The notes below the pieces were generated by a model that was not told where the DNA came from, ran no database searches, and was given only the letters and a program-made list of their open reading frames with translations. 64,000 nucleotides of DNA from the NCBI GenBank assembly GCA_910585725.1, contig CAJUFA010000010.1:21450-85449 (forward strand), given 5' to 3'. This DNA is from an uncultured Dorea sp. Its GTDB lineage: Bacteria; Bacillota; Clostridia; Lachnospirales; Lachnospiraceae. The position numbers and the translations under genes were made by a program. Numbering within the stretch: position 1 is the stretch's first letter; every line of letters starts with the position of its first letter. This document shows positions 24,415-43,141 of the stretch, in pieces.

Positions 24415-25107
24415 ATGAGTCAATTTGAAGTTATATTATGGGATGTGGACGGAACTTTGCTGGATTTCCTCACAGCGGAGAGAGCAGCGATATGCTCTCT
24501 TTTCCGGGAGTTCGGTCTGGGGGAATGTACAGATGAGATGATAGGCAGGTATTCCAGGATCAATAAGAGATATTGGGAAAAATTGGAACTCGGAGAGATG
24601 ACGAAGCCCCAGATCCTGGTGGGGCGTTTTAAGGAGTTCTTTCGCGGCGAGGGGCTGGATGAATCTCTGGGGGAAAGTTTCAATGCGGCTTATCAGACAC
24701 GTCTTGGCGATACCATTGCGTTTTGTGACAACAGTAAGGAGATCGTGACCTCTTTCAGAGGAAGATACAAGCAGTATGTAGTATCAAACGGGACGATAGC
24801 GGCTCAGACGAAGAAGCTTAAAAATTCCGGTTTCGATAAGCTTATGGATGGTATTTTCCTGTCTGAACAGGTAGGATATGAGAAACCGGCAAAGGAATTT
24901 TTTGATATTGTATTGCGGGAGATCAAGGCAGCAGAACGGGATAAGGTTTTGATTGTCGGGGATTCTCTGACCGGCGATATGATGGGCGGAACCCGCGCCG
25001 GTATCAAGACCTGCTGGTATAACCCGGACGGGCTTGAGAATCATACGGAGGCAAGAGTGGATTATGAGATCCGGAATTTGAATGAGATTATATTGATCAT
25101 GCGTTAA
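24415..25107 (+). CDS. HAD-IA family hydrolase (YjjG-like nucleotidase type)
   Basis: Motif I ILWDVDGTLLDF, motif II VVSNG, motif III/IV KP...VGDSLTGDM. The start is set at the ATG after AAGGAGGA. Confidence 0.75.
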   Translation: MSQFEVILWDVDGTLLDFLTAERAAICSLFREFGLGECTDEMIGRYSRINKRYWEKLELGEMTKPQILVGRFKEFFRGEGLDESLGESFNAAYQTRLGDTIAFCDNSKEIVTSFRGRYKQYVVSNGTIAAQTKKLKNSGFDKLMDGIFLSEQVGYEKPAKEFFDIVLREIKAAERDKVLIVGDSLTGDMMGGTRAGIKTCWYNPDGLENHTEARVDYEIRNLNEIILIMR

Positions 25108-25110
25108 GCA

Positions 25111-25167
25111 GGATTTGATTTAAAGAGACTCCCGGCAATATTGGTAAAACCGAAGATGTTTACCGGC
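25111..25167 (+). repeat. left copy of a patchy direct repeat flanking the AT-rich island
   Basis: Ordered blocks GGATTT(G)ATTTAAAG, CAATAT, GGTAAAAC and GTTTACCGGC. The same order recurs at 27212-27302. Confidence 0.35.
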
Positions 25168-25415
25168 GTAGAACGGTATCGGTTCATCATGGAGAAAGTG
25201 CGGCGGGTTGGTGTATCCCAGGATGAAGGGTTCCAGAAGCAGGAGGTGTCGGCATGAAGCAGGAAAAGTGGCTAAGTCTGCGATATACCGAATACAGATA
25301 AGATATTTACCGAAATAAAGTAAATGACAGCAACTGCTAATTGCTTTTTGGCACTTTTCAAGCTCTTTATTTTTCTATATGGTCATTTTATAATAGAAAA
25401 AAGGAGGCAATTTTT

Positions 25416-25898
25416 ATGAATACAAATATCATTTCAAAATATTTGCAGTTACTGCGAAAAAAACATAACTACACGCAAGACGAATTAGCAAAAAGATTGG
25501 ATATATCCAGACAAGCTGTTTCAAAATGGGAAACAGGGGCAGCTATTCCAGATTTAGAGGTTCTGCTAAAAATATCTAAGCTTTACGGGATTACAATAAA
25601 TGATATTTTAGAGCCCAATATACCTACTAAAAAGATAACTGATTTTGAACAATTATCAAAAGTGCCAGAAAACGAATTAAAAGAAATATTGGAACAATAT
25701 GATATGGCATCTCTTGTTATAGCTTCAATGGGGTCATCTCCAGAAATTAATAATTTACTGGAAAAATTATTTCCGGATGTAGATTATAAAATGGAAAGAA
25801 ACCATATTGGCAGAATTAGAGTTGATGAAGTTGAAAGAATACAACAGGAAATAGTTTCTGTCATAAATTTAAGAGCTTTAGATAGTGAATTTTTATAA
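25416..25898 (+). CDS. XRE-family HTH protein fused to a FliG C-terminal-like domain
   Basis: N-terminal HTH_3 (YTQDELAKRLDISRQAVSKWETG). The C-terminal 85 aa align by eye to FliG_C (FEQLSKV..ELKEILEQYD..SLVIASMGSSPEINNLLEKL....IGRIRVDEVERIQQEIVSVI). The start is at the ATG after AAGGAGG. Confidence 0.65.
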   Translation: MNTNIISKYLQLLRKKHNYTQDELAKRLDISRQAVSKWETGAAIPDLEVLLKISKLYGITINDILEPNIPTKKITDFEQLSKVPENELKEILEQYDMASLVIASMGSSPEINNLLEKLFPDVDYKMERNHIGRIRVDEVERIQQEIVSVINLRALDSEFL

Positions 25899-26184
25899 AA
25901 TTATAAGTCAAGAAACGAAGTATTATTCCAAAAGGTAAATGGTCAATCTTGAAAAGCAAGAAATCTGGGCAGATGTTACAGCCTTCCAATACAGCCTGTA
26001 TCCGATTTAAAGAACCCCTTTGATTTGCTGTTTTGGCGGTCCTGCGTCCTCATCAAAATCCGATGGAAACAAAATGTAGTACACCTAAGGAGCTGAAAAT
26101 CAGTCTGTCGGTTAATTAGGGCAATTTCTATTAAGATTATTTTAGGAGGTTATGTTATATTAAGTGAGGAAAGGAGTGTCATAT

Positions 26185-26601
26185 ATGAACAATAACACAG
26201 CTGTAAAAAAGGTAGTGGATTATATAGAAACACATATTGACGAGGATCTGTCACTTGATAAAATAGCAAACGCATTAAATTATTCAAAATTCTATATAGC
26301 CAGAATTTTTACTGAAGAAACGAAATGTACGGTTTATAAATACATACAAGGACGTAGATTGACTTTGGCAGCTCAAAAACTTGTGGAAACAGAACAGCCT
26401 ATTGTTGAAATCGCTTATGAAGCACATTATGATTCACAGCAAGCTTTTACATTGGCTTTTAAACAATTTTATGGATGTACGCCTAAAATTTATCGGAAAA
26501 ATGGTGTATTCTATCCGAAACAATCAAAGATAAGTATGATGAGTTCGCTTGGTGGATATAGATTTATGTATTATTTTGCAGGAGGTAAATTAGCAGCATG
26601 A
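26185..26601 (+). CDS. stand-alone AraC/XylS-family (MarA/SoxS-like) transcriptional activator ending in ...KLAA
   Basis: Double HTH_18 ([21 protein letters not shown] and [28 protein letters not shown]) with no ligand domain. The start is at the ATG after GAAAGGAG. Confidence 0.75.
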
Positions 26602-27188
26602 GTACAATTCCCTATGTTATTGAGCAAACAAGCCGAGGAGAACGAAGTTATGATATTTTTTCAAGGTTATTGTCTGACAGAATTGTTTTTTTGGGAGAAG
26701 AAGTAAGTGATGTTTCAGCAAGTTTAATTATTGCACAAATGTTATTTTTAGAAGCACAAGACCCAGAAAAAGACATTCAGTTATATATAAATAGTCCAGG
26801 CGGTTCTGTTTCAGCGGGCTTTGCTATTTATGATACAATGCAGTATATCAAATGTGATGTTTCAACGATATGTATAGGACTTGCCGCTAGTTTTGGAGCT
26901 TTTTTATTGGCGGGAGGTGCAAAAGGAAAACGTATTGCTTTGCCCAATGCAGAAATTATGATACATCAGCCTGCTATTCATGGCAACGGAATTCAAGGGC
27001 AGGCAACTGATATAAAAATTACATCTGACCATATACAAAAAAGCAAAAAACGTCTTAATGCTATTTTAGCTGATAATATAGGTAAAAGTATTGATGAGGT
27101 CGCTATTGCTACAGAACGTGATAATTATATGACGGCAAAAGAAGCAATGAATTTTGGGTTGATTGATAAAATTATTGATATGCGTTGA
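26598..27188 (+). CDS. clpP: ATP-dependent Clp protease proteolytic subunit (additional ClpP paralogue in an AT-rich island)
   Basis: Full-length ClpP with an intact triad context: GLAASFGAF (Ser), MIHQP (His) and TERDNYM (Asp). Its ATG overlaps the upstream TGA (ATGA). Confidence 0.9.
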
Positions 27189-27211
27189 CTGTTATACAGA
27201 AATGATAATTT

Positions 27212-27312
27212 GGATTTAAAGCAAAAAATCCTAATCAATATCATTACAAAGGTGAAAATATAAAGTCGGTAAACTTGTGAAATTAAGCTGCAGTTTATCG
27301 GCTCTGTTTTTT
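27212..27312 (+). repeat. right copy of the patchy direct repeat; also a probable clpP terminator
   Basis: Blocks GGATTTAAAG, CAATAT, GGTAAAC and GTTTATCGGC, followed by CTCTGTTTTTT. GGTAAAC/GTTTATC can pair as an imperfect stem. Confidence 0.35.
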
Positions 27313-27400
27313 CATAAGAGTTTAAGGCGAACGCCTGCCATATAAAAAAACGATGTTATGGTGGGCGGTATTGCTATGCTCGAAAAGACTTAACAGACAC

Positions 27401-27437
27401 TCTCCAGACCTGTTTTAAAGTTTGGAGGGATTTTTTA
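27401..27437 (+). terminator. orphan rho-independent terminator in a 0.5-kb non-coding gap
   Basis: TCTCCAGAC-ctgttttaaa-GTTTGGAGG followed by ATTTTTT. No intact ORF ends in front of it. Confidence 0.5.
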
Positions 27438-27703
27438 TGTCCTTTTTTTGGGTAGTAATCTATCTGCTCATGCAACGCAGATTTTATCCATACATAGCAT
27501 ATCGGGGATTAGCAGGAAGCCAGTTAAAAAAGTTTCCGTCTACGTCACGCTACTTCTCACCATGAAACCAGAAGTAGAATCTCCACTTAAAAGAAGAAAA
27601 AAATTTTTTATCAACTATCTTTTTAGGGGTTTCAGTTGTTAATATATATAGGCGCGTGAAAAAGAGGAAAAAGATTGATGTACGTCAGGAAGGAGGAGAA
27701 TAA

Positions 27704-28207
27704 GTGAATCCGGACTTTTTACTGGTAGAAAAAATGAAAACGGGAAACAGCAAGGCAGGAGAAGAGTTTATCAAAAAATATTATCCTTCCATATATCAAT
27801 ATTGTATTTTGCATATCCATGACAGAAATTGCGCGGAAGATATGACGCAGGAAACGTTTCTGAGATTTTTTGAAACGATAGATACGTATACAGAAAGGGG
27901 AAAAGTGAAGAACTATTTATACTGTATTGCCGGAAACTGTATCAAGAATTATTTCAAAAAGAAAAAAGAAGTACTTCCGGGAGAGATGAAGGATATACCG
28001 GAAGAATGCGACGGGATGGAGCTTAGGCTGGATATTGAGCGGGCGGTGGACAGTTTGCCGGAGGATTTGAAGGAGATTGCGATTCTATTCTTCTTTCAGG
28101 GGTTGAAGCAGCGTGAGATTGCGGATCTGTTAAATATTAATGTACCGCTGATAAAGTACCGTATTCGGGAAGCAAGAAAGAAATTATCGGAATATTTAGG
28201 GAGGTGA
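27704..28207 (+). CDS. ECF-type RNA polymerase sigma-70 family factor
   Basis: Region 2 (DMTQETFLRFF) and region 4 (LKQREIADLLNINVPLIKYRIREARKKL). GTG start follows GGAGGAG; an internal ATG is also possible. Confidence 0.8.
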   Translation: MNPDFLLVEKMKTGNSKAGEEFIKKYYPSIYQYCILHIHDRNCAEDMTQETFLRFFETIDTYTERGKVKNYLYCIAGNCIKNYFKKKKEVLPGEMKDIPEECDGMELRLDIERAVDSLPEDLKEIAILFFFQGLKQREIADLLNINVPLIKYRIREARKKLSEYLGR

Positions 28208-34541: not shown

Positions 34542-34642
34542 GTTCAATTATTGATTGTTCCTGTAATAACTTCGCAATAACTGCAAGGTATGATAAACCT
34601 GCAATCTAAAACAGGGTTTTGACAGAGAAGGGAGCGAAGATT

Positions 34643-35224
34643 ATGAACAAAACATGGAAGAGATTCAGAGTGATATTGACAGCGGCGGGGATGGCAATCT
34701 GCATGACGGCGGGACTGGGAATGGGAATCTACTGGTCCAGAGGACAGGCAGAGAAGACGGCGGTAGCGGCGGCAGCAAGGGAAATGGAATTCGAGTCCGG
34801 GGAGCCGGAAGAGATTGGCAGAGTATATCAGCCGCGAGCCGGTGAAGACAGTCTCTATAAGGATATTGTTTTAGACGAAGAGGTTGCAAAAGAGGTTTGT
34901 GATAGGTATAATCTTGATTATGACACGGTGAAGAGTAAGGATGTGACCCGTGAGATGCGCAATTATGAGGAGGCTCTGTGGCTGATCAAGGATATGGGAG
35001 ACTGCCCGCTCCTGGGACAGGAGTGGGGAAAAGGAGCGTTCGCTTCGCTGCAGATGTATATCCAGGAGATTTATGCCTTTGGCGACGGGGAAGAAGTCGT
35101 AAGAGAGATGTGTAAGGAATACGGGATCGACCCGGATAAGGCGGTGATTTCAGATTTGACGACAGAGCAGTTGATAGAAGTCGGAGAGAAGGCTTTCGAG
35201 ACATCCGATCATCCAAAGGGGTAA
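34643..35224 (+). CDS. membrane-anchored or secreted hypothetical protein
   Basis: ATG follows GAAGGGAG. N-terminal hydrophobic anchor ILTAAGMAICMTAGLGMGIYW, then an acidic soluble domain. No recognisable family. Confidence 0.55.
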   Translation: MNKTWKRFRVILTAAGMAICMTAGLGMGIYWSRGQAEKTAVAAAAREMEFESGEPEEIGRVYQPRAGEDSLYKDIVLDEEVAKEVCDRYNLDYDTVKSKDVTREMRNYEEALWLIKDMGDCPLLGQEWGKGAFASLQMYIQEIYAFGDGEEVVREMCKEYGIDPDKAVISDLTTEQLIEVGEKAFETSDHPKG

Positions 35225-35230
35225 GGAATT

Positions 35231-35896
35231 GTGGCGGATATATTGATCGTAGAGGATGACAGGAGAATTAACGAACTCATCCGAAGAACTCTAACTATGA
35301 CAGGACATATAGGGCTTCCGGCTTATTCCGGCCGGGAAGCCCTGTCTGTGCTGGAAGAGAAACGGATCGATCTGATCCTGTTGGATATCGGTCTGCCGGA
35401 TATGGACGGCTTCGCATTGATGCGGCAGATTGCCAGGGAATTTAACGGGATTCCGGTGATCTGTGTGACTGCAAGAGACGAGGTTCCGGATCGGGTGAAG
35501 GGGTTAAAAGGCGGCGCGGAAGATTATATCGTGAAGCCTTTTGCCGTGGAAGAATTGCTTGCGAGAGTTCAGGTGGTGCTCAGGCGGTTTCATAAGGAAC
35601 AAAGTATCTTCCATATTCATGACGTAGAGGTGGACCTGGCGGGCGCTGACGTGAAGAAAGAAGGGAAACATGTAGACCTCACTAAGCAGGAGTACGAACT
35701 CCTTAAGGTTCTGCTTCTGAATAAGAATATCGCGCTTTCCAGGGAACGTCTTCTGGAGCTTGCCTGGGGGATGGATTTCTATGGGGATGACCGTACTGTG
35801 GATGTGCATATTAGGAGACTTCGACAGAAGCTCGGTTTAGAGAATGAGATCAAGACTATATTCCGATATGGATACCGGTTAGAGTTGGAGAGATAA
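35231..35896 (+). CDS. OmpR-family response regulator
   Basis: GTG start. Motifs ILIVEDD, LILLDIGLPDMDG and DVHIRRLRQKL. Confidence 0.8.
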   Translation: MADILIVEDDRRINELIRRTLTMTGHIGLPAYSGREALSVLEEKRIDLILLDIGLPDMDGFALMRQIAREFNGIPVICVTARDEVPDRVKGLKGGAEDYIVKPFAVEELLARVQVVLRRFHKEQSIFHIHDVEVDLAGADVKKEGKHVDLTKQEYELLKVLLLNKNIALSRERLLELAWGMDFYGDDRTVDVHIRRLRQKLGLENEIKTIFRYGYRLELER

Positions 35897-35897
35897 G

Positions 35898-37055
35898 ATG
35901 CAGTTATGGAAGAAGAATTTTCTGGTAATTTATGGCATATTCCTTGTAGTTGTCAATGCAGGACTCTTTCTTTTGGATAATTATATTTCAAGGAATGAGG
36001 CGAGTCTGTGGATCGATCAGGCACAAAAAAGCGAGAGAAGTATCTATTATCTGGCCGCCGGGCTTAAGGAGGAAGAGATTAGTCGGATGTCCATGAATCT
36101 GAACGATGCGGCCGAAAGATACGAAGAATCAGGTATACTTATCCGAGTGCGCGTCAACGAATATATTGCGGCGGACCATTTTCCCATAGAACAGACGCCG
36201 GAAGAGGTATTGGAAGGGCCGTTGATTGAGGTCCGAAGGATCAGGGGAGAACGCTGGCTGGTTATTCAGGAGGCGGGAAGAGAAGGGGAAGATTTGATTG
36301 TGGTAGAGTATGCGCAGGAGTTGGAGGGTCTGTCGCGGATTCAGACGATAAGAATGTGGATATTCTGCGGAGCGGGATTGGTATTTTCAGGAATCATGGG
36401 ATTATTCCTATATTATACCATGCGGCGGATCAACCGACCGATAAACCAGATTGCTCATGAGCTTCGGACGCCTCTCACCGGAATCCGTGGTTATGCGGAA
36501 TATATGATGATGGGGAAGCTTTCGGAAGAAGATCAGTTTTTTGCCGCCGGTCAGATCGTGGAGAGCGCGAAGCATCTGGAGGACGTTACGGAGAAGCTGT
36601 TGATCATGGGAAATGTACGGGAAGGTGCGATTCGGATTGAAAGAATGGATATTGGGCAGATGTTTCTCAAAATAGAAGAAAAATATCCGATTGTCGAGAC
36701 CGACTGTGGGTTAGAATTTCTGAACGGAGATAAAGCGTTAGTATTCTGCCTGCTTGACAACCTGACAGCCAATGCGGTCAGAGCCGGAAACAGAGTCAGA
36801 ATCACGGCAAGCGAAGAAGGAATTCGTATCTGGAATAACGGGGAACCTATGGATGAGAAAATATTAAAGGATATCAATAGGGGGCAGGATCTGTCCGCGA
36901 GCCGTATGGGGAGGCATGGATACGGCATCCAGGTATGCCGGGAGATTGCCAAAGCACATGGATGGAAGCTTCGGTTTCGGTCGTCCAAAGAAGAAGGGAC
37001 AGAAGTCTTTTGCCAGATTACCCCGGATATCAGAACCAATAATTTTAATGTATAG
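35898..37055 (+). CDS. sensor histidine kinase (two TM helices flanking a ~130-aa extracytoplasmic loop)
   Basis: H-box IAHELRTPLTGIRGY, N box LTANAVRA and G-box region HGYGIQVCREIA. The last ~15 codons switch to AT-rich sequence. Confidence 0.8.
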   Translation: MQLWKKNFLVIYGIFLVVVNAGLFLLDNYISRNEASLWIDQAQKSERSIYYLAAGLKEEEISRMSMNLNDAAERYEESGILIRVRVNEYIAADHFPIEQTPEEVLEGPLIEVRRIRGERWLVIQEAGREGEDLIVVEYAQELEGLSRIQTIRMWIFCGAGLVFSGIMGLFLYYTMRRINRPINQIAHELRTPLTGIRGYAEYMMMGKLSEEDQFFAAGQIVESAKHLEDVTEKLLIMGNVREGAIRIERMDIGQMFLKIEEKYPIVETDCGLEFLNGDKALVFCLLDNLTANAVRAGNRVRITASEEGIRIWNNGEPMDEKILKDINRGQDLSASRMGRHGYGIQVCREIAKAHGWKLRFRSSKEEGTEVFCQITPDIRTNNFNV

Positions 37056-37070
37056 CAGAGGAGAAGTTGA

Positions 37071-38324
37071 ATGTACGACCGTTTTAAAGGAAGGGTGTAT
37101 AGTGTAGGAGATGGATTTTGTTACGAAGGAATAATTAAAGAAAATACTTCCAATAGCTATCATTTTGTGATAGATTGTGGCAGTCAGGCGCCTAAAAACA
37201 GGAAGCAAAAAGTAGGAGAATTATCAAGTACAACAGAATGTAATAGTCGGTTGAAGGAAATAACAGATGAGATAGTTAGTAATGGAGATCATATTGATTT
37301 GTTTATATTAACACATCTGCATGTCGATCATTATAACGGGATTAAGATGCTTTTTCAAAGCGGGATTCCGGATATGATTATAATGCCTTATTTATATCCG
37401 GAAGAAAGATTATGCTTAATAATAAATAACGATATGGATGACGATGATTCCCTATTTTTGGCAGATCCGTATACTACTGTTTTGAATTTGGCAAAAGAAA
37501 GTAATCCCGACGCGAAATTAATTTTGTTTAGAGGAAATGTAGACAACGTTGACGATGATGATCTTGATGACAGGCAGACCGACGACTCAATCGTATGGGG
37601 AGTACCATATGAAGATTCTGAATATATATTGGAGGTGGAAGATATCAGACTGTCTGACGCGGAAGTAGTAAGCGTCACCCAAAAGAATATAGAAATTTTT
37701 GACGGTATTTGGGTATTTAAATTTTTTAATTTGGAAATAGATAAAGCTGATATTGATGTATTAAAAAAAATAGTCGGAAAATTGACGGCAAAACACTTGT
37801 ATAACAATATTGCTAGCCTAAAAAAACAGTATAAAAAGATTGCTAAAAATCTTTTTAATGATTTTAATAATACTTCAATTGTTACATATCATGCTCCGTT
37901 TCATAATTATAGTAGATGTGGGACTTTAATAACCGGAGATATTGACTTGAATCATAATATTGTTGATTCGATATTGGATTATTTTAATAACGAAATGGAT
38001 AAAATCGGACTGTTTTCTATACCGCATCATGGATCTAAGGCAAATTGGAATAAAAAATTGATTGATAGCGGGGTTTTAAAAAGTAGCATATGTTTTGCTT
38101 CTACACATAATTATTACTCAAATAGAATGATGCCTGATATGATGTCTGATCTGAGATGTCAAAATATTTGTGCGTTAGTAGTAGATGAAAATCGTTTTAG
38201 TGAAATTGAGCAGATTATTGATAATTCATATTCTCCATACATTTTAAATAAAAGTCATAAAAACTATAAAATAGAGGCTTTGTTAGGAAAAGAGCCTGTA
38301 AGAATGATTATAATACGGCCATAA
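37071..38324 (+). CDS. MBL-fold metallo-hydrolase, ComEC/Rec2-type motif set, with acidic insertions
   Basis: Motifs HFVIDCGS, THLHVDHYNG (HxHxDH), TYHAP, LITGDID and IPHHGSKANW. Poly-Asp inserts DMDDDD and DNVDDDDLDD. AT-rich. Starts 15 nt after the kinase stop. Confidence 0.7.
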   Translation: MYDRFKGRVYSVGDGFCYEGIIKENTSNSYHFVIDCGSQAPKNRKQKVGELSSTTECNSRLKEITDEIVSNGDHIDLFILTHLHVDHYNGIKMLFQSGIPDMIIMPYLYPEERLCLIINNDMDDDDSLFLADPYTTVLNLAKESNPDAKLILFRGNVDNVDDDDLDDRQTDDSIVWGVPYEDSEYILEVEDIRLSDAEVVSVTQKNIEIFDGIWVFKFFNLEIDKADIDVLKKIVGKLTAKHLYNNIASLKKQYKKIAKNLFNDFNNTSIVTYHAPFHNYSRCGTLITGDIDLNHNIVDSILDYFNNEMDKIGLFSIPHHGSKANWNKKLIDSGVLKSSICFASTHNYYSNRMMPDMMSDLRCQNICALVVDENRFSEIEQIIDNSYSPYILNKSHKNYKIEALLGKEPVRMIIIRP

Positions 38325-38518
38325 AAATTGGGCCGATGTTTGAGGTTATTCTCACAAGTCTGTCAATTCTACTTATGGAAAGCCAGATGTGCCGTGCCCA
38401 AAATGATTGTTTCCTGTGATTTGTTGTTCTGTGTTCTGGGGAATTACTTACAGAAAAATTAAAAAGAGTCGATAGTAGTCATAGATATATTTGAAATAAC
38501 TATTTGATCGGAGGATTT

Positions 38519-39724
38519 ATGATAGAGTTAAGAGGAAAATATAACGAAGCAAAAGTTTTTACCGACGTAGTAGACGAAGCGTCTATTTCGCAGGTGCTTC
38601 TTTTACTTAATCAAGAATTTGTGGTTGGAAGTAAGATTAGACTTATGCCGGATATTCACGCCGGATCTGGATGTACAATCGGTACTACTATGACTATTAC
38701 AGATAAGATCGTACCTAATCTGGTAGGGGTAGATATCGGATGCGGCATGGAAGTTATTAAGATTAAAGAAAGAAATATGGAGTTACAAAAGCTTGATAAA
38801 TTGATTTATGAAAGGATTCCGTCTGGATTTAATATTAGAGAAAAAGCTCATAGATATTTTAAGGAAATTAATCTGGACGACTTATATTGTTATAAACAGA
38901 TAGACATAAGACGGGCCGAGAAGAGCATGGGGACATTGGGCGGTGGTAATCATTTTATAGAAGCTAATAAAGATAGCGAGGGGAATATTTATATCGTAGT
39001 GCATTCAGGCAGTCGCCATTTGGGATTGGAAGTTGCCAAATATTACCAAGAGGAAGGCTATAAGAAATTGAATGGATCGACACAAAAAGATATCGATGCT
39101 TTGATTATGGATTTGAAAGCACAGGGAAGACAGAAAGAGATTCAGAAAAGTATTGCTGCGTTGAAAAATACAAAGAGAACTAATATTCCTAGACAATTGG
39201 CGTACGTATCGGATGAATTGTTCTTACAATATATACATGATATGAGAATCGTTCAAAATTATGCCGAATTGAATCGAAAAGCAATGATGGATGAAATTGT
39301 AAAAGGAATGAAATTACATATTGTAGATCAATTTACAACGATTCATAATTACATAGATACAGATTCTATGATCTTAAGAAAGGGAGCTGTATCTGCAATG
39401 GATGGAGAAAAGCTGATTATACCTATCAATATGAGGGATGGTTCCTTAATTTGTATTGGGAAAGGAAACGATGAGTGGAATCAATCTGCGCCTCATGGAG
39501 CAGGGAGATTAATGAGCAGGTCGGCAGCGAAAGAATCATTTACGGTTTCAGAATTTAAGAAACAAATGGAAGGTATTTTTACCACGTCTGTTAACCGGGA
39601 TACTCTGGACGAATGCCCGATGGCATACAAAGGGATTGATGATATTGTAAATAACATAGATGAAACGGTTGATATTAATAGAATTATAAAGCCAATATAT
39701 AATTTTAAAGCGAGTGGGGATTAA
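38519..39724 (+). CDS. rtcB: RtcB-family RNA 3'-phosphate/2',3'-cyclic-phosphate ligase
   Basis: Motifs MPDIHAGSGCTIG, GGGNHFIE, VHSGSRHLG, TIHNY and SAPHGAGR (nucleophilic His motif) are all present. The start is at the ATG after GGAGGA. Confidence 0.85.
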   Translation: MIELRGKYNEAKVFTDVVDEASISQVLLLLNQEFVVGSKIRLMPDIHAGSGCTIGTTMTITDKIVPNLVGVDIGCGMEVIKIKERNMELQKLDKLIYERIPSGFNIREKAHRYFKEINLDDLYCYKQIDIRRAEKSMGTLGGGNHFIEANKDSEGNIYIVVHSGSRHLGLEVAKYYQEEGYKKLNGSTQKDIDALIMDLKAQGRQKEIQKSIAALKNTKRTNIPRQLAYVSDELFLQYIHDMRIVQNYAELNRKAMMDEIVKGMKLHIVDQFTTIHNYIDTDSMILRKGAVSAMDGEKLIIPINMRDGSLICIGKGNDEWNQSAPHGAGRLMSRSAAKESFTVSEFKKQMEGIFTTSVNRDTLDECPMAYKGIDDIVNNIDETVDINRIIKPIYNFKASGD

Positions 39725-39801
39725 TGATTATAGAACAGGGGATAATATGATGAATAATTTCATGAATATATGATGTTGGATGTCAGAAAGGGATTTTTAC
39801 T

Positions 39802-40200
39802 GTGATAGAGATTGATTATTTTATATCATTACCACAATTGCAGAAATTATCTGATTTTAAATTACGCCAGTTAATGTTGTGTGCAGAGTGTGAGATGAAA
39901 GAAATTACCCGTGCAAAATGTACGTATTATATGTGTGTTATGGAAAGCAATAGAAGAAATTACGATAAATGGCCGTGTGAAATGGATGTTATTTCGTATG
40001 TAGATATATATGATGAAGATAATAATGTGATTTTTGGATATGGCGATCATTATACGATGTATGTTATTAAGGGGGCGGTGTTGGTATATGACAATCAATG
40101 GATTCCATACTTATTTGGCAGCAATGAGGAAGATCCCATGTGTATTTGGAAATATTTCTGTGTGTCTAGAGATGGGATTGTCAGGTATAATGACGCTTAA
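39802..40200 (+). CDS. Cys-rich hypothetical protein (132 aa)
   Basis: GTG-initiated ORF in the same AT-rich island. Contains CAECEMKEITRAKCTYYMC. No family recognised, and coding status rests on length and context only. Confidence 0.45.
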   Translation: MIEIDYFISLPQLQKLSDFKLRQLMLCAECEMKEITRAKCTYYMCVMESNRRNYDKWPCEMDVISYVDIYDEDNNVIFGYGDHYTMYVIKGAVLVYDNQWIPYLFGSNEEDPMCIWKYFCVSRDGIVRYNDA

Positions 40201-40264
40201 TGAATTGCGACAGTTACTGTATGGGACATTGGCAGATATAAACAGCTTTGTTTATTTTTACTTC

Positions 40265-40280
40265 CTTACAAAACTGTAAG
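40265..40280 (+). promoter_or_regulatory. BceR-type response-regulator operator upstream of the bceAB-like operon
   Basis: Perfect inverted repeat CTTACA-AAAC-TGTAAG, which matches the TNACA-N4-TGTAA type site described for Bce-like modules. TATAAT lies at 40334-40339, and ATG at 40396. Confidence 0.65.
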
Positions 40281-40395
40281 AATAGAAGAGGAAAATGTCA
40301 CCCAATTCGATGGAATGGCATTTCTTTTTTTATTATAATTATCCTTGTAAACAAGAAGAAATCAATAGACATAGTTGTGAAAGGACGGATATCTG

Positions 40396-41163
40396 ATGGC
40401 ATTGTTAGAAGTAAAGAATGTAAAGAAAATATACACGACCAGATTTGGCGGGAACCAGGTGGAAGCGTTGAGAGATGTGAATTTTTCTGTGGAGCCAAGG
40501 GAATATGTGGCGATTATGGGGGAATCAGGCTCCGGAAAGACGACGCTTTTAAATATTCTTGCGGCTCTTGATAAGCCGACCGGAGGCAAAGTCTATCTGA
40601 AAGGCAAGGATTTAAGTTCGGTAAGGGAGAAGGAGATCGCAGCGTTTCGCCGGCAGAATCTGGGGTTTGTGTTTCAGGACTTTAATCTTCTGGATACGTT
40701 TTCACTTAAAGATAATATCTTTCTTCCGCTGGTACTTTCCGGCAAGAAATACGAGGAAATGGCGAAGAGAATCCAACCGATTGCGCGGATGCTTGAGATC
40801 GAGGAGATCCTGGAGAAGTTCCCCTATGAAGTGTCCGGAGGGCAGAAGCAGAGAGCGGCGGTTGCAAGGGCGCTGATTACGAAGCCGCAGCTGATTCTGG
40901 CGGACGAACCAACAGGGGCGTTGGATTCCAGAGCAGCGGACGGGCTTCTGAATCTCTTCATGACGATCAATGAGGAGGGGCAGACAATCCTTATGGTGAC
41001 GCACAGTGTCAAGGCGGCGAGTACTGCGAAGAGGGTATTGTTTATCAAAGACGGAGAAGTATTTCATCAGTTGTACCGCGGCAATCTTACCAATGAACAG
41101 ATGTATCAGAAGATTTCCGATACGCTGACGGTATTGACGACAGGAGGTGACAGGGTTGAGTAG
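40396..41163 (+). CDS. BceA-like ABC transporter ATP-binding protein
   Basis: Walker A GESGSGKTT, signature VSGGQKQR, Walker B ILADEPTGALD. The length (255 aa) and partner gene fit MacB/BceA type. Confidence 0.85.
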   Translation: MALLEVKNVKKIYTTRFGGNQVEALRDVNFSVEPREYVAIMGESGSGKTTLLNILAALDKPTGGKVYLKGKDLSSVREKEIAAFRRQNLGFVFQDFNLLDTFSLKDNIFLPLVLSGKKYEEMAKRIQPIARMLEIEEILEKFPYEVSGGQKQRAAVARALITKPQLILADEPTGALDSRAADGLLNLFMTINEEGQTILMVTHSVKAASTAKRVLFIKDGEVFHQLYRGNLTNEQMYQKISDTLTVLTTGGDRVE

Positions 41164-43141
41164 CTCTATCTATGGAAAACTTGCGTTTACAAATCTTAAG
41201 AATAATCGAAAGACCTATGTCCCCTATATACTCACATCAATCCTGACGGTGATGATGTATTATATTATGGATGCATTGTCGCGAAGTTCCAGCATCGTCG
41301 ATCCAAGTCTTCAATCGGTTTTGTTGTGTGCAGTGGGGGTCATCATGATATTTGCCGTCATCTTTCTGTTCTATACGAACAGTTTCCTGATTAAGCGAAG
41401 GAAGAAGGAGATAGGCGTCTATAATATTCTTGGCATGGGGAAAAGGCATATCGCGCAGATGCTTGTAGTTGAAACCGTGGTTACGGCGGTAATCAGCATA
41501 GGCGCAGGACTGGTCTTTGGAATCATCTTCAGTAAATTCATGTATTTGGCGCTGATTAAGCTTCTGCACTATGACGTACGGATGGAATTCGAGGTATCAG
41601 GGACGAGTATTCGATATACATTGATCCTGTTTGTGGCGATATTTCTGATGACGCTGGTCTTTAATCTGTTTCAGATTCAGGTTTCTAATCCGGTGGAACT
41701 GCTTCACGGAGGAAATCAGGGGGAAAAGGAGCCAAAGACAAAACGGATTATGACGGTCTTTGGAGTGATCATGCTGGCGGTCGGATATTATATTGCGCTA
41801 ACGGTAGAGCAGCCGCTGGCGGCGATTCAGGCATTTTTCGTAGCGGTGGTCTGCGTAATTCTCGGCACCTATGCGCTGTTTACGTCCGGAAGCATCGCTA
41901 TTCTTAAGGGGCTTCGGAAGAATAAGAAGTTCTATTATCAGGCAAAGAATTTCAGCGCGGTGTCCGGGATGATCTATCGGATGAAGCAGAATGCGGTGGG
42001 ACTTGCCAATATTTGTATCTTAAGTACGATGGTGCTGGTTATGATCTCTACAACCATTTCCCTCTATGTAGGAATGGAGGATGTGTTAAGGACGAGATAT
42101 CCGAGAGAGTTCGAGGCGAAGACGAACGTCTCCTCGCCGGAGGCGGATCAGGCGATTGACAGGATCATTGAGGAAGAGATGGCGGACGCAGGAGTGGAAC
42201 CGAAGTCTGTGCTTCGGTATCATGACGGGAGTATGACGGCTGTCAGGCAGGAAGACGGGTTTCAATTGCTGCAGTTTGGAAACTATGCAGAAGAGGATAC
42301 GACGGAGATCATATTGATTCCGCTCGAGGATTATAATCGCATGGAGGGCGAAGAGGGATCTCTTGCGCCGGACGAGGTCTATGCATATAGTACAGGCGAA
42401 GACTGGGGCGGAGATTCTGTCAAGATAGGAGATAAGACATACCGTGTGACAAAGGAACTTAAGAATCTTCAGATTGATCCGAAGAACGCGCAGAATATGA
42501 TGTCCAGTTATTTTTTCATCTTCTCCGACGCAGGGCAGATACAGGAATTGCTGGAAAATGTCTATGAAGACAGCGGTATGCAGGAAGATTGGGTAGAACA
42601 GGTATCTACAATCAATTATCGGGTGGTTTTTGATCTGGAAGGAGACGAAGAGGATTGCCTGAATGTGATGCGGGCCATACAGTCCAGAGTTGAAGGTGAA
42701 GTCAACGCCGCTTTCTGCGAGAGCAGAGAGCTTAGCAGGGAAGAATTCTATTACTTATACGGCGGGCTGCTTTTTATCGGTATTTATCTTGGAGCTTTAT
42801 TTCTGATGGCGACGGTGCTGATCATGTATTACAAGCAGATTTCAGAAGGGTATGACGACAGAGAGCGGTATCAGATTATGCAGAAGGTGGGAATGAGTAA
42901 GCGCGAGGTCAAGGGAGCCATAAGAAGTCAGGTACTTCTGGTATTTTTTCTGCCTCTTGTAACGGCAGTCGTTCATATTACCGTGGCGTTTGACGTGATC
43001 ACAAAGCTTCTGGCGGTACTGAACCTGACGAATGTTTCTTTATTCCTTTCATGTACGATCGCGACGGTAATCGTGTTCGCCGTATTCTATGGCATCGTAT
43101 TCTCGCTGACGGCAAGGGAATATTATAAGATTGTGAATTGA
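41147..43141 (+). CDS. BceB-like FtsX-domain permease (10 TM helices with a large extracellular domain)
   Basis: 664 aa. Motif LAFTNLKNNRKTY, two FtsX-type 4-TM bundles and a ~200-aa soluble insert. The exact start is uncertain (GTG at 41147 or TTG at 41156). Confidence 0.8.
   Translation: MTGLSSSIYGKLAFTNLKNNRKTYVPYILTSILTVMMYYIMDALSRSSSIVDPSLQSVLLCAVGVIMIFAVIFLFYTNSFLIKRRKKEIGVYNILGMGKRHIAQMLVVETVVTAVISIGAGLVFGIIFSKFMYLALIKLLHYDVRMEFEVSGTSIRYTLILFVAIFLMTLVFNLFQIQVSNPVELLHGGNQGEKEPKTKRIMTVFGVIMLAVGYYIALTVEQPLAAIQAFFVAVVCVILGTYALFTSGSIAILKGLRKNKKFYYQAKNFSAVSGMIYRMKQNAVGLANICILSTMVLVMISTTISLYVGMEDVLRTRYPREFEAKTNVSSPEADQAIDRIIEEEMADAGVEPKSVLRYHDGSMTAVRQEDGFQLLQFGNYAEEDTTEIILIPLEDYNRMEGEEGSLAPDEVYAYSTGEDWGGDSVKIGDKTYRVTKELKNLQIDPKNAQNMMSSYFFIFSDAGQIQELLENVYEDSGMQEDWVEQVSTINYRVVFDLEGDEEDCLNVMRAIQSRVEGEVNAAFCESRELSREEFYYLYGGLLFIGIYLGALFLMATVLIMYYKQISEGYDDRERYQIMQKVGMSKREVKGAIRSQVLLVFFLPLVTAVVHITVAFDVITKLLAVLNLTNVSLFLSCTIATVIVFAVFYGIVFSLTAREYYKIVN

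Follow-up and report, generated by a model that had tools for sequence, protein, structure and literature searches.

In a 64,000-nucleotide (nt) stretch from an uncultured Dorea sp. (contig CAJUFA010000010.1, positions 21,450 to 85,449; hereafter the window), a 3.3-kb AT-rich islet with sharp edges fills the space between the stop codon of a histidine kinase gene and the start codon of bceA. It carries three genes, here termed g1, g2 and g3, which encode a putative ComEC-type metallo-β-lactamase (MBL)-fold protein, a putative RtcB RNA ligase and an orphan protein, respectively; the corresponding NCBI protein names are hypothetical, RtcB family and hypothetical. We consider it probable that the islet is a mosaic made up of two accessory units, g1 alone and an RtcB–g3 cassette, each mobile independently of the other; both sit in a variable junction and are under purifying selection. 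In kind the islet is ordinary, a short tract of accessory genes acquired horizontally, two of which (g1 and g3) represent uncharacterised small families.

Homologues of g1 at 39%–68% identity were examined in their contigs. They occur in seven distinct contexts (Table 1), each time alone and with neither RtcB nor g3 nearby, and at L001 and L004 the AT-rich patch is precisely one gene, the g1 homologue. DNA similarity between g1 and these homologues is limited to the coding sequence and stops at or before 38274, the flanks being unrelated save the ribosome-binding site (six loci). The arrangement AGGAGAAG-N-ATG is also found ahead of the homologues at L004 and L005, where the remaining upstream flank is unrelated; g1 has its own ribosome-binding site, which moves with the gene in other genomes. 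For the RtcB side, we collected 112 RtcB loci from IMG/VR and metagenomes and clustered their open reading frames (ORFs). RtcB was called in 103 loci, of which 80 had upstream sequence sufficient for g1 and 85 had downstream sequence sufficient for g3. With a g1 profile, g1 was found beside RtcB only at L059, which is the window's own sequence, and nowhere else among the 80 informative loci. Downstream of RtcB, g3 was found only at L027, L059 and L060 among the 85; apart from the window's own sequence this amounts to 2/84 loci, both of them related AT-rich phage contigs. Because g1, RtcB and g3 do not co-occur outside this lineage, the single three-gene module proposed in a preliminary description of this DNA is unsupported: it failed the co-occurrence test, the triad being unique to this lineage.

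The RtcB–g3 cassette is delimited by a block of 80% DNA identity (38492–40172), common to the window and to another Dorea genome (L006/L013), which consists of RtcB, the following spacer and g3, and nothing else. The pair also occurs in the 131-kb viral contig IMGVR_UViG_3300006217_000006 (local GC 0.32), in which RtcB is 88% and g3 77% identical to the window copies and an 84-amino-acid (aa) ORF lies between them, and in a 66.5-kb contig (L060, OFGA01000129.1, GC 0.30). The guanine-plus-cytosine (GC) content of the islet matches that of these phage contigs, and the RtcB–g3 pair is evidently phage-borne. Only the closest RtcB lineage (at least 88% identity) has g3 behind RtcB; RtcBs at 69%–85% identity never have it. 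Between the RtcB–g3 block, beginning at 38492, and the g1 block, ending at or before 38274, lies a non-homologous spacer. Since the separate similarity blocks end on either side of it, we read the g1–g2 spacer as the junction of two mobile units; its fold z-score of −0.81 is no better than that of shuffled sequences.

The composition of the islet departs from that of both flanks. Over 300-nt intervals, GC is 0.47–0.50 up to about 37050, 0.28–0.37 from 37050 to about 40400, and 0.44–0.54 beyond, and the spot counts first given (0.583 at 36901–36960 and 0.283 at 37741–37800) were exact on recount. Third-position GC is 0.27 for g1, 0.32 for g2 and 0.34 for g3, against 0.53–0.59 for the response regulator, kinase, bceA and bceB genes. 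This gap, together with the occurrence of the same genes at unrelated chromosomal sites and of RtcB–g3 in the 131-kb viral contig of matching GC, bears out the suggestion of horizontal acquisition. The three genes are intact and on the plus strand, with gaps of 15 nt between the kinase TAG (37053–37055) and the g1 ATG, 194 nt between g1 and g2, and 77 nt between g2 and g3. No terminator-like site was found between the kinase gene and g1 or between g1, g2 and g3; two terminator-like matches fall within coding sequence, their count no higher than in shuffles, and promoter-like matches in the islet do not exceed the frequency seen after shuffling. With a 15-nt gap and no terminator, read-through from the kinase operon is possible. 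An Rfam scan of the islet gave no credible match.

All contigs carrying the exact kinase have an identical islet. It is also present in a strain that is 99.5% identical; the three genes differ there by 16 substitutions, of which 13 are synonymous, at a density like that of the flanks. Because this strain carries the islet with mostly synonymous change, the islet is older than the split of the two strains and its genes have been maintained; all three genes are evidently under purifying selection, as judged from these substitutions. The three-gene unit, made up of a protein of 193 aa, the regulator and the kinase, is retained at the loci of kinase orthologues with 76%–79% identity and is followed there by other genes, rpsT or AAA_14 ATPases, unrelated to the islet. 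Given that orthologous loci carry other genes there, the junction downstream of the kinase is a variable spot. The first protein of the unit, of 201 aa in the window, has no Pfam family, is kept with the regulator–kinase pair in orthologous loci (193–195 aa; L142 and L143), and shows the highest between-strain substitution density, 13 per kb. At one of these loci (L142:1–5456; kinase 76% identical), BREX genes encoding a PglX-type methyltransferase and PglZ lie upstream, and rpsT takes the islet's place.

The g1 product matches Pfam Lactamase_B with an E-value of 2.6e-7 and belongs to a small family of 36 clusters at 39%–68% identity. Across 36 family members, D35, H82-x-H84-x-D86-H87, N266/S269 (NNTS), G289-D290 and P318-H-H-G-S322 are invariant, which confirms the full MBL motif set, including PHHGS, that had been noticed at first. 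The poly-Asp insertions noticed with it (DMDDDD and DNVDDDDLDD) are real, though they fall in the least conserved and lowest-confidence region of the protein. The AlphaFold2 model has a predicted local distance difference test score (pLDDT) of 85.6 and a predicted template modeling score of 0.90, and its top Foldseek match is the ComEC β-lactamase-like domain (9ic4; E 7e-11, TM-score 0.73 on the target), in agreement with the original assignment to a ComEC type. Ranks 2–4 are Pce/CbpE (E 2e-10 to 4e-9), with RNase Z next. From the motifs, the confident model and the best structural match, g1 is a member of the MBL-fold superfamily, in its ComEC-like branch. Defence-oriented PADLOC and NCBIfam models also match g1, namely LmuA (E 6e-13), RTasMBL, PDC-M48B, Avs1a and 6A-MBL (E 8e-9), mostly in the N-terminal HxHxDH region only and far under the curated cut-offs. 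By eye, g1 has no signal peptide, membrane segment, anchor or cell-wall-binding repeat. Given the ComEC and defence-type profile matches, g1 is most likely a lone two-metal phosphodiesterase, with a nuclease favoured. In virus collections, g1 has no match among GenBank phages or IMG/VR, and its structural matches in BFVD are unnamed proteins. An identification with Apyc1 was rejected: fresh Pfam scanning failed to reproduce the precomputed PF23023 hits, which are themselves weak. A seemingly truncated g1 at L022 is merely a scaffold gap of Ns.

Two g1 homologues are found in loci for cell-envelope glycopolymers. At L145 (4742–8251), the homologue begins 30 nt after a 742-aa Metallophos–GDPD gene, in surroundings that include glycosyltransferase, CTP-transferase and glycerophosphotransferase genes; at L010 (3957–9251), it comes after CapK-like and epimerase genes. 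A distant homologue, 24.5% identical over 77% of g1 (E 1e-14) and annotated as hypothetical, is found on the Bacillus toyonensis plasmid pDC11_1 (L149:6965–8437), divergent from an adjoining ABC-three-component (Lamassu-type) operon and near HNH endonuclease and nucleotide pyrophosphohydrolase genes.

The g2 gene was listed from a TTG at 38504 (406 aa); the ATG at 38519 (401 aa) is preferable, as it is preceded by GGAGGA (38510–38515) and used in public gene calls. Its product matches Pfam RtcB (PF01139) with E 7e-64 and 217 bits against a cut-off of 27, and phrog_1075 with E 1.2e-140 over residues 6–404. Aligned to Pyrococcus horikoshii RtcB (PH1602), it shows GVDIGCG (D95/C98), GGGNHF (N202/H203), VHSGSRHLG (H234) and PHGAGR (H404). 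For His329, the third metal-site histidine, a TIHNY motif is present in a segment where the pairwise alignment is unreliable. The metal-ligand and His-GMP motifs of an intact catalytic site are thus present, as first reported. Furthermore, a search with g2 hit 691 phage records, and its identity to the RtcBs of Bacillus phages, such as Deep Blue and Bcp1, is 59%. We conclude that g2 is, by sequence, an RtcB 3′-phosphate/5′-hydroxyl RNA ligase from the phage branch of a known family.

In all three contexts other than the window (L006/L013, L026 and L060), a PemK/MazF gene lies at most 1 kb from RtcB–g3, with a partner gene that differs by context: MazE, HTH_3 or ribbon-helix-helix. The AT-rich contigs L026 and L060 are related, agree in local gene order and carry MazF genes of one cluster; because of this relatedness, the association is independent in two arrangements, not three. 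The L006/L013 MazF is 28% identical to the phage MazF and lies on the opposite side of the RtcB–g3 pair. A small MazF profile found no further copy among about 100 other RtcB loci. MazF leaves 2′,3′-cyclic-phosphate/5′-OH ends, and RtcB re-ligates MazF-cut 16S rRNA in Escherichia coli (PMC5416887). A functional association of RtcB–g3 with MazF is plausible from these few contexts. The islet itself has no gene for PemK/MazF or another metal-independent RNase and g1 is not co-inherited with RtcB, so the islet does not hold a toxin–antitoxin or toxin–antidote pair with RtcB. The earlier idea of a nuclease toxin linked to RtcB is therefore echoed in relatives, by PemK/MazF, and is unsupported for the MBL gene g1.

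RtcBs 69%–71% identical to g2 are found in about 30 large gut-phage contigs (L030–L056 and L124–L138), within an NAD+-related cluster. Its gene order is isochorismatase, PRPP-synthetase-fold (Adps-like), RtcB, a 74-aa ORF, NAMPT/NAPRTase-like (Namat-like), Macro and NAD synthase. Adps and Namat are the pair of the NAD+ reconstitution pathway NARP1, a counter-defence (10.1101/2024.02.11.579819), and the gut-phage cluster looks like this pathway with an RNA ligase inserted. Phage RNA ligases, RtcB included, have been viewed as an answer to host RNases (PMC7824862, PMC9503650), and the place of RtcB in the NARP1-like cluster agrees with this view. In two further loci, a 261-aa TIR_2-domain protein (E 1.5e-31; L062:1641–2426 and L061:2981–3766) is encoded two genes upstream of an RtcB 85% identical to g2; at L062 no g3 follows that RtcB.

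The g3 protein has no family in Pfam, NCBIfam, PADLOC or PHROG, which upholds its initial description as lacking a recognised one. That description also called it Cys-rich: it does have 7 Cys in 132 aa, but not a conserved four-Cys zinc motif, as conservation among close relatives is limited to C51, C56, C114 and C120, and distant relatives retain only about three of them. By its 14 clusters and their alignment g3 is a real, conserved protein, with only 14 representatives in a profile search of 1.84 billion proteins. Its AlphaFold2 model, of low confidence (pLDDT 55.6), shows N-terminal helices and a small C-terminal β unit, and Foldseek gave no usable structural match; weak SH3-like matches and a match to a 2797-aa Ig-repeat protein were treated as noise. 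Homologues at 60%–65% identity stand alone, with neither RtcB nor MazF, in six genomes (Sporofaciens musculi and five Dorea/Lachnospiraceae assemblies). They share one syntenic site, flanked by spoIIIAH and an FtsA-like gene on one side and by a HAD hydrolase gene on the other, and their GC of 0.40–0.46 is slightly under the 0.43–0.51 of the flanks.

Taken together, we propose a putative model in which both units landed in the variable junction downstream of the two-component system in a Dorea species. The first unit, g1, would be a cytoplasmic, free-standing ComEC-type MBL enzyme acting alone like its solitary relatives, and its two-metal site (HxHxDH, D290 and H319/H320) would most likely catalyse phosphodiester cleavage in nucleic acid. 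The second unit, the RtcB ligase followed by g3, would be a cassette from an AT-rich large phage. In RtcB, the His of PHGAGR would be guanylylated, the GMP moved to the 3′-phosphate end of an RNA, and this end sealed to a 5′-OH end. Such a ligase may reverse cuts made in tRNA, rRNA or mRNA by metal-independent RNases, including MazF/PemK toxins, anticodon nucleases and colicin-type ribotoxins, serving as counter-defence in phage and as an RNA-damage antidote in a bacterial chromosome. Alongside it, g3 would be either a passenger or some accessory factor. Three steps of the model are ones that we infer: which substrates g1 acts on, which RNases RtcB counters, and whether expression comes by kinase read-through or from own promoters.

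Several observations weigh against such a mosaic. The three genes lie close together on the same strand and no terminator-like site separates them, so they may well be co-transcribed, and this could have made a functional link peculiar to this lineage. When the kinase and its 99%, 79% and 76% orthologues were used for exact-protein look-ups, no empty or half-filled site was recovered, and stepwise assembly is accordingly something we infer rather than see. In addition, the second-best structural match of g1 is a teichoic-acid phosphorylcholine esterase, and two of its homologues lie in cell-wall glycopolymer loci. Finally, in one instance g1 is carried by an AT-rich, phage-like contig of 96 kb (L005), which has a GIY-YIG endonuclease gene in common with the RtcB–g3 contig L060; all three genes could thus derive from one phage gene pool or even from one unsampled donor. 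That endonuclease gene (L005:13399–13971; L060:3147–3710; phmmer E 5e-53) is the only one common to the fetched parts of both contigs and is itself mobile; a shared phage origin of g1 and RtcB–g3 was rejected as a candidate. Decay in place of a larger prophage, of which the islet would be the last remnant, would explain why a 131-kb viral contig with the islet's GC carries the RtcB–g3 pair and why g1 lies in a phage-like contig with integrase, HNH and GIY-YIG endonucleases. Yet the islet consists of three genes only, all intact and under purifying selection, and in or near it we found no integrase, tRNA, att-like repeat, other notable direct or inverted repeat, or phage structural or replication gene, both flanks being host-like. 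Moreover, g1 and RtcB–g3 are not neighbours in phage contigs, and only RtcB–g3 has a phage counterpart, the g1 profile patterns lacking a relative in IMG/VR. The larger degraded prophage once considered for this region is therefore not borne out, and we regard a remnant as improbable.

The reading of the islet as one conflict module holds that the MBL nuclease damages, RtcB repairs and g3 regulates, perhaps driven by the upstream two-component system. It draws on the close same-strand spacing without terminator-like sites, the three genes kept intact with mostly synonymous change, the nuclease toxin MazF adjoining RtcB–g3 in relatives, and profile scans that place g1 closer to defence-system MBL effectors than to housekeeping MBLs. 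We nevertheless judge it very improbable: the triad is confined to this lineage, g1 stands by itself in seven other contexts and adjoins RtcB in 0/80 other informative loci, and the g1 and RtcB–g3 similarity blocks end separately at a non-homologous spacer. Two-metal MBL nucleases leave 3′-OH/5′-phosphate ends, which RtcB cannot join, so the expected products of g1 are not RtcB substrates. A more far-reaching proposal makes RtcB–g3 the repair component of an RNA module of "cut-and-reseal" type, mobile and carried by phages, whose nuclease is exchangeable and in which g3 gates or directs RtcB or the nuclease. If it were true, the nuclease would be PemK/MazF in the phage contigs and the other Dorea genome and the ComEC-type MBL here, and g1 would be an MBL RNase with RtcB-ligatable products, unusual for the fold; we hold this to be a long shot. 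A narrower alternative takes RtcB–g3 as a two-protein functional unit, with g3 as an activator, specificity factor or inhibitor of a MazF-type RNase, and g1 as an unrelated neighbour. The pair has moved as one DNA block between phage and two chromosomal sites, g3 at 77% identity or above always comes after RtcB, directly or past one small ORF, and PemK/MazF lies close by in all three other contexts. Set against this are the lone g3 homologues in six genomes, the RtcBs at 69%–85% identity without g3 (with g3 present in just 2/84 loci apart from the window), the 84-aa ORF between the two genes in the phage copy, and the want of any structural or family clue to g3, and we think such a unit unlikely. 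Also unlikely, in our view, is that g1 is no nuclease and acts instead on envelope glycopolymers, as Pce/CbpE does, or on nucleotide second messengers, as does the phage anti-defence enzyme Apyc1. The Pce/CbpE structural matches, the homologues after Metallophos–GDPD in a teichoic-acid-type locus and beside capsule genes, and the position of g1 between an envelope-stress-type kinase and BceAB would suit the former; for the latter, the family profile finds its best PDB sequence match in Apyc1, though at a non-significant E of 0.078, and one distant homologue has a weak Anti-Pycsar_Apyc1 Pfam hit. However, unlike Pce, g1 shows by eye no signal peptide, anchor or cell-wall-binding repeat; its best structural match is the ComEC nuclease domain, and Apyc1 is not among the significant Foldseek matches. 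Its other contexts are defence or toxin–antitoxin islands (L148 and L012) and the phage-like contig, and the polysaccharide loci are themselves AT-rich variable regions, which makes their context weak evidence. A mosaic of two separately mobile units accordingly remains the reading we prefer.

Table 1. Features of the islet, its neighbours and the loci compared with it
Feature	Position	Strand	Basis or remark
AT-rich islet	37056–40395		GC 0.28–0.37 vs 0.45–0.52 in flanks; third-position GC contrast
g1 ribosome-binding site GGAGAAG	37060–37066	+	4 nt ahead of ATG
g1, putative ComEC-type MBL-fold protein, 417 aa	37071–38324	+	Pfam, motifs, AlphaFold2, Foldseek
g1–g2 spacer, no recognisable element	38325–38518	+	junction of two similarity blocks; no Rfam match
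g2, putative phage-type RtcB, 401 aa (alternative TTG start 38504)	38519–39724	+	Pfam, PHROG, motifs
g3, orphan, 132 aa, GTG start	39802–40200	+	conserved ORF, no family
201-aa protein	34619–35224		first gene of conserved three-gene unit with regulator and kinase
Response regulator	35231–35896		middle gene of three-gene unit
HisKA/HATPase_c sensor kinase	35898–37055	+	stop TAG 37053–37055; ends three-gene unit
BceAB-type ABC transporter	40396–43141	+	ATPase 40396–41163, FtsX permease 41147–43141; host-like composition
PemK/MazF by L006/L013	L006:6038–6609, L013:4023–4702		MazE–MazF directly upstream of RtcB–g3, after Uma2 gene
PemK/MazF by L026	8494–9245		downstream, with divergent HTH (HTH_3) gene; Pfam E 1e-23
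PemK/MazF by L060	6957–7708		downstream, with divergent ribbon-helix-helix gene; E 1e-15
Gut-phage cluster, example coordinates	L034:6433–7920, L040:4202–4987, L052:7923–8372, L043:8377–9120, L137:3645–4202
g1 context L001–3			between acyltransferase and ychF
g1 context L004			between glycosyltransferase and pyruvate-ferredoxin oxidoreductase genes
g1 context L005			96-kb AT-rich phage-like contig (ERZ27267547:k119_76149) with integrase, HNH and GIY-YIG endonucleases
g1 context L010/11			adjoins capsule genes, dCTP deaminase-family (DCD) gene and transposase
g1 context L012			adjoins small ORFs, GmrSD fragment and toxin–antitoxin-like genes
g1 context L145–7			directly after Metallophos–GDPD gene, teichoic-acid-type locus
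g1 context L148			island with Fic, PDDEXK_2, SocA_Panacea and nSTAND genes

Elsewhere in the window, a second AT-rich patch (25000–28000, GC 0.34–0.35) lies immediately upstream of an extracytoplasmic function sigma factor gene. It encodes an HTH_3 protein with a FliG_C-like tail (25341–25898), a short AraC-type helix-turn-helix protein (26164–26601) and a ClpP protease (26598–27188).

The tempting call of a new defence system is removed by these results, which leave complementary-sounding chemistry brought together by chance juxtaposition of separately mobile genes. Three leads come in its place. An uncharacterised ComEC-type MBL family (about 36 clusters) moves as a single AT-rich gene between chromosomes of gut Firmicutes, defence islands and a phage-like element; the tiny orphan family of g3 hitch-hikes with one phage RtcB lineage; and phage RtcB recurs by MazF toxins and within NAD+-reconstitution clusters, which marks it as a component of gut-phage counter-defence islands.

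No MBL–RtcB system is described in the literature searched, and each protein is best compared with systems of its own. Among these, the ComEC nuclease domain (9ic4; PMC12455585, PMC5031224) shares the HxHxDH, NNxS-like and PHHGS motifs with g1. Unlike ComEC, g1 is predicted to be soluble and free-standing, with about 150 extra residues, an acidic low-complexity loop and no channel or OB-fold domain, and its scores against the ComEC/Rec2 models are far below their cut-offs (TIGR00361, 14.4 vs 190; PRK11539, 16 vs 969). The anti-phage MBL effectors (Lamassu LmuA-MBL, 6A-MBL, Avs1a, reverse transcriptase (DRT)-associated MBL and PDC-M48B) are the top PADLOC/NCBIfam matches of g1, and some g1 homologues lie in defence or toxin–antitoxin islands, with the distant plasmid one by a Lamassu-type operon. 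Again the scores fall short (6A-MBL, 35 vs 220; Avs1a, 17.4 vs 420), and none of the partner genes of these systems (LmuB/LmuC, E1/E2/JAB-type, STAND NTPase or reverse transcriptase) is found beside g1 in the window or in the seven homologue contexts; g1 is thus neither ComEC itself nor part of a named defence system. Pce/CbpE of Streptococcus pneumoniae (2bib, 1wra) is the second-best structural match (E 2e-10), and some homologues are in wall-polymer loci; at 14% identity, g1 differs from it in having neither a secretion signal nor choline-binding repeats.

Cellular RtcB seals 2′,3′-cyclic-phosphate or 3′-phosphate ends to 5′-OH ends (PMC10630183, PMC9304027). With the E. coli RtcBA–RtcR operon and the RtcB2–PrfH pair, g2 shares family and predicted chemistry; these differ in that no RtcA, RtcR or PrfH is encoded near g2, which scores under the cut-offs of the cellular types in NCBIfam (PRK09588, 132 vs 407; release_rtcB, 99.9 vs 271.8). 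The reversal of MazF damage by RtcB in E. coli (PMC5416887) has its parallel in the three other contexts where PemK/MazF lies near RtcB–g3, whereas the window is without MazF, and the MBL enzyme encoded next upstream of its RtcB is not expected to yield RtcB substrates. Closest to g2 are the phage RtcBs (PHROG 1075; Deep Blue, Bcp1, BCP8-2 and gut phages), which it resembles in its full-length match and in the catalytic Asp/Cys/His and His-GMP motifs. In contrast to these, g2 resides in a bacterial chromosome, in a 3.3-kb islet without other phage genes, and is followed by g3, an arrangement absent from most phage RtcBs.

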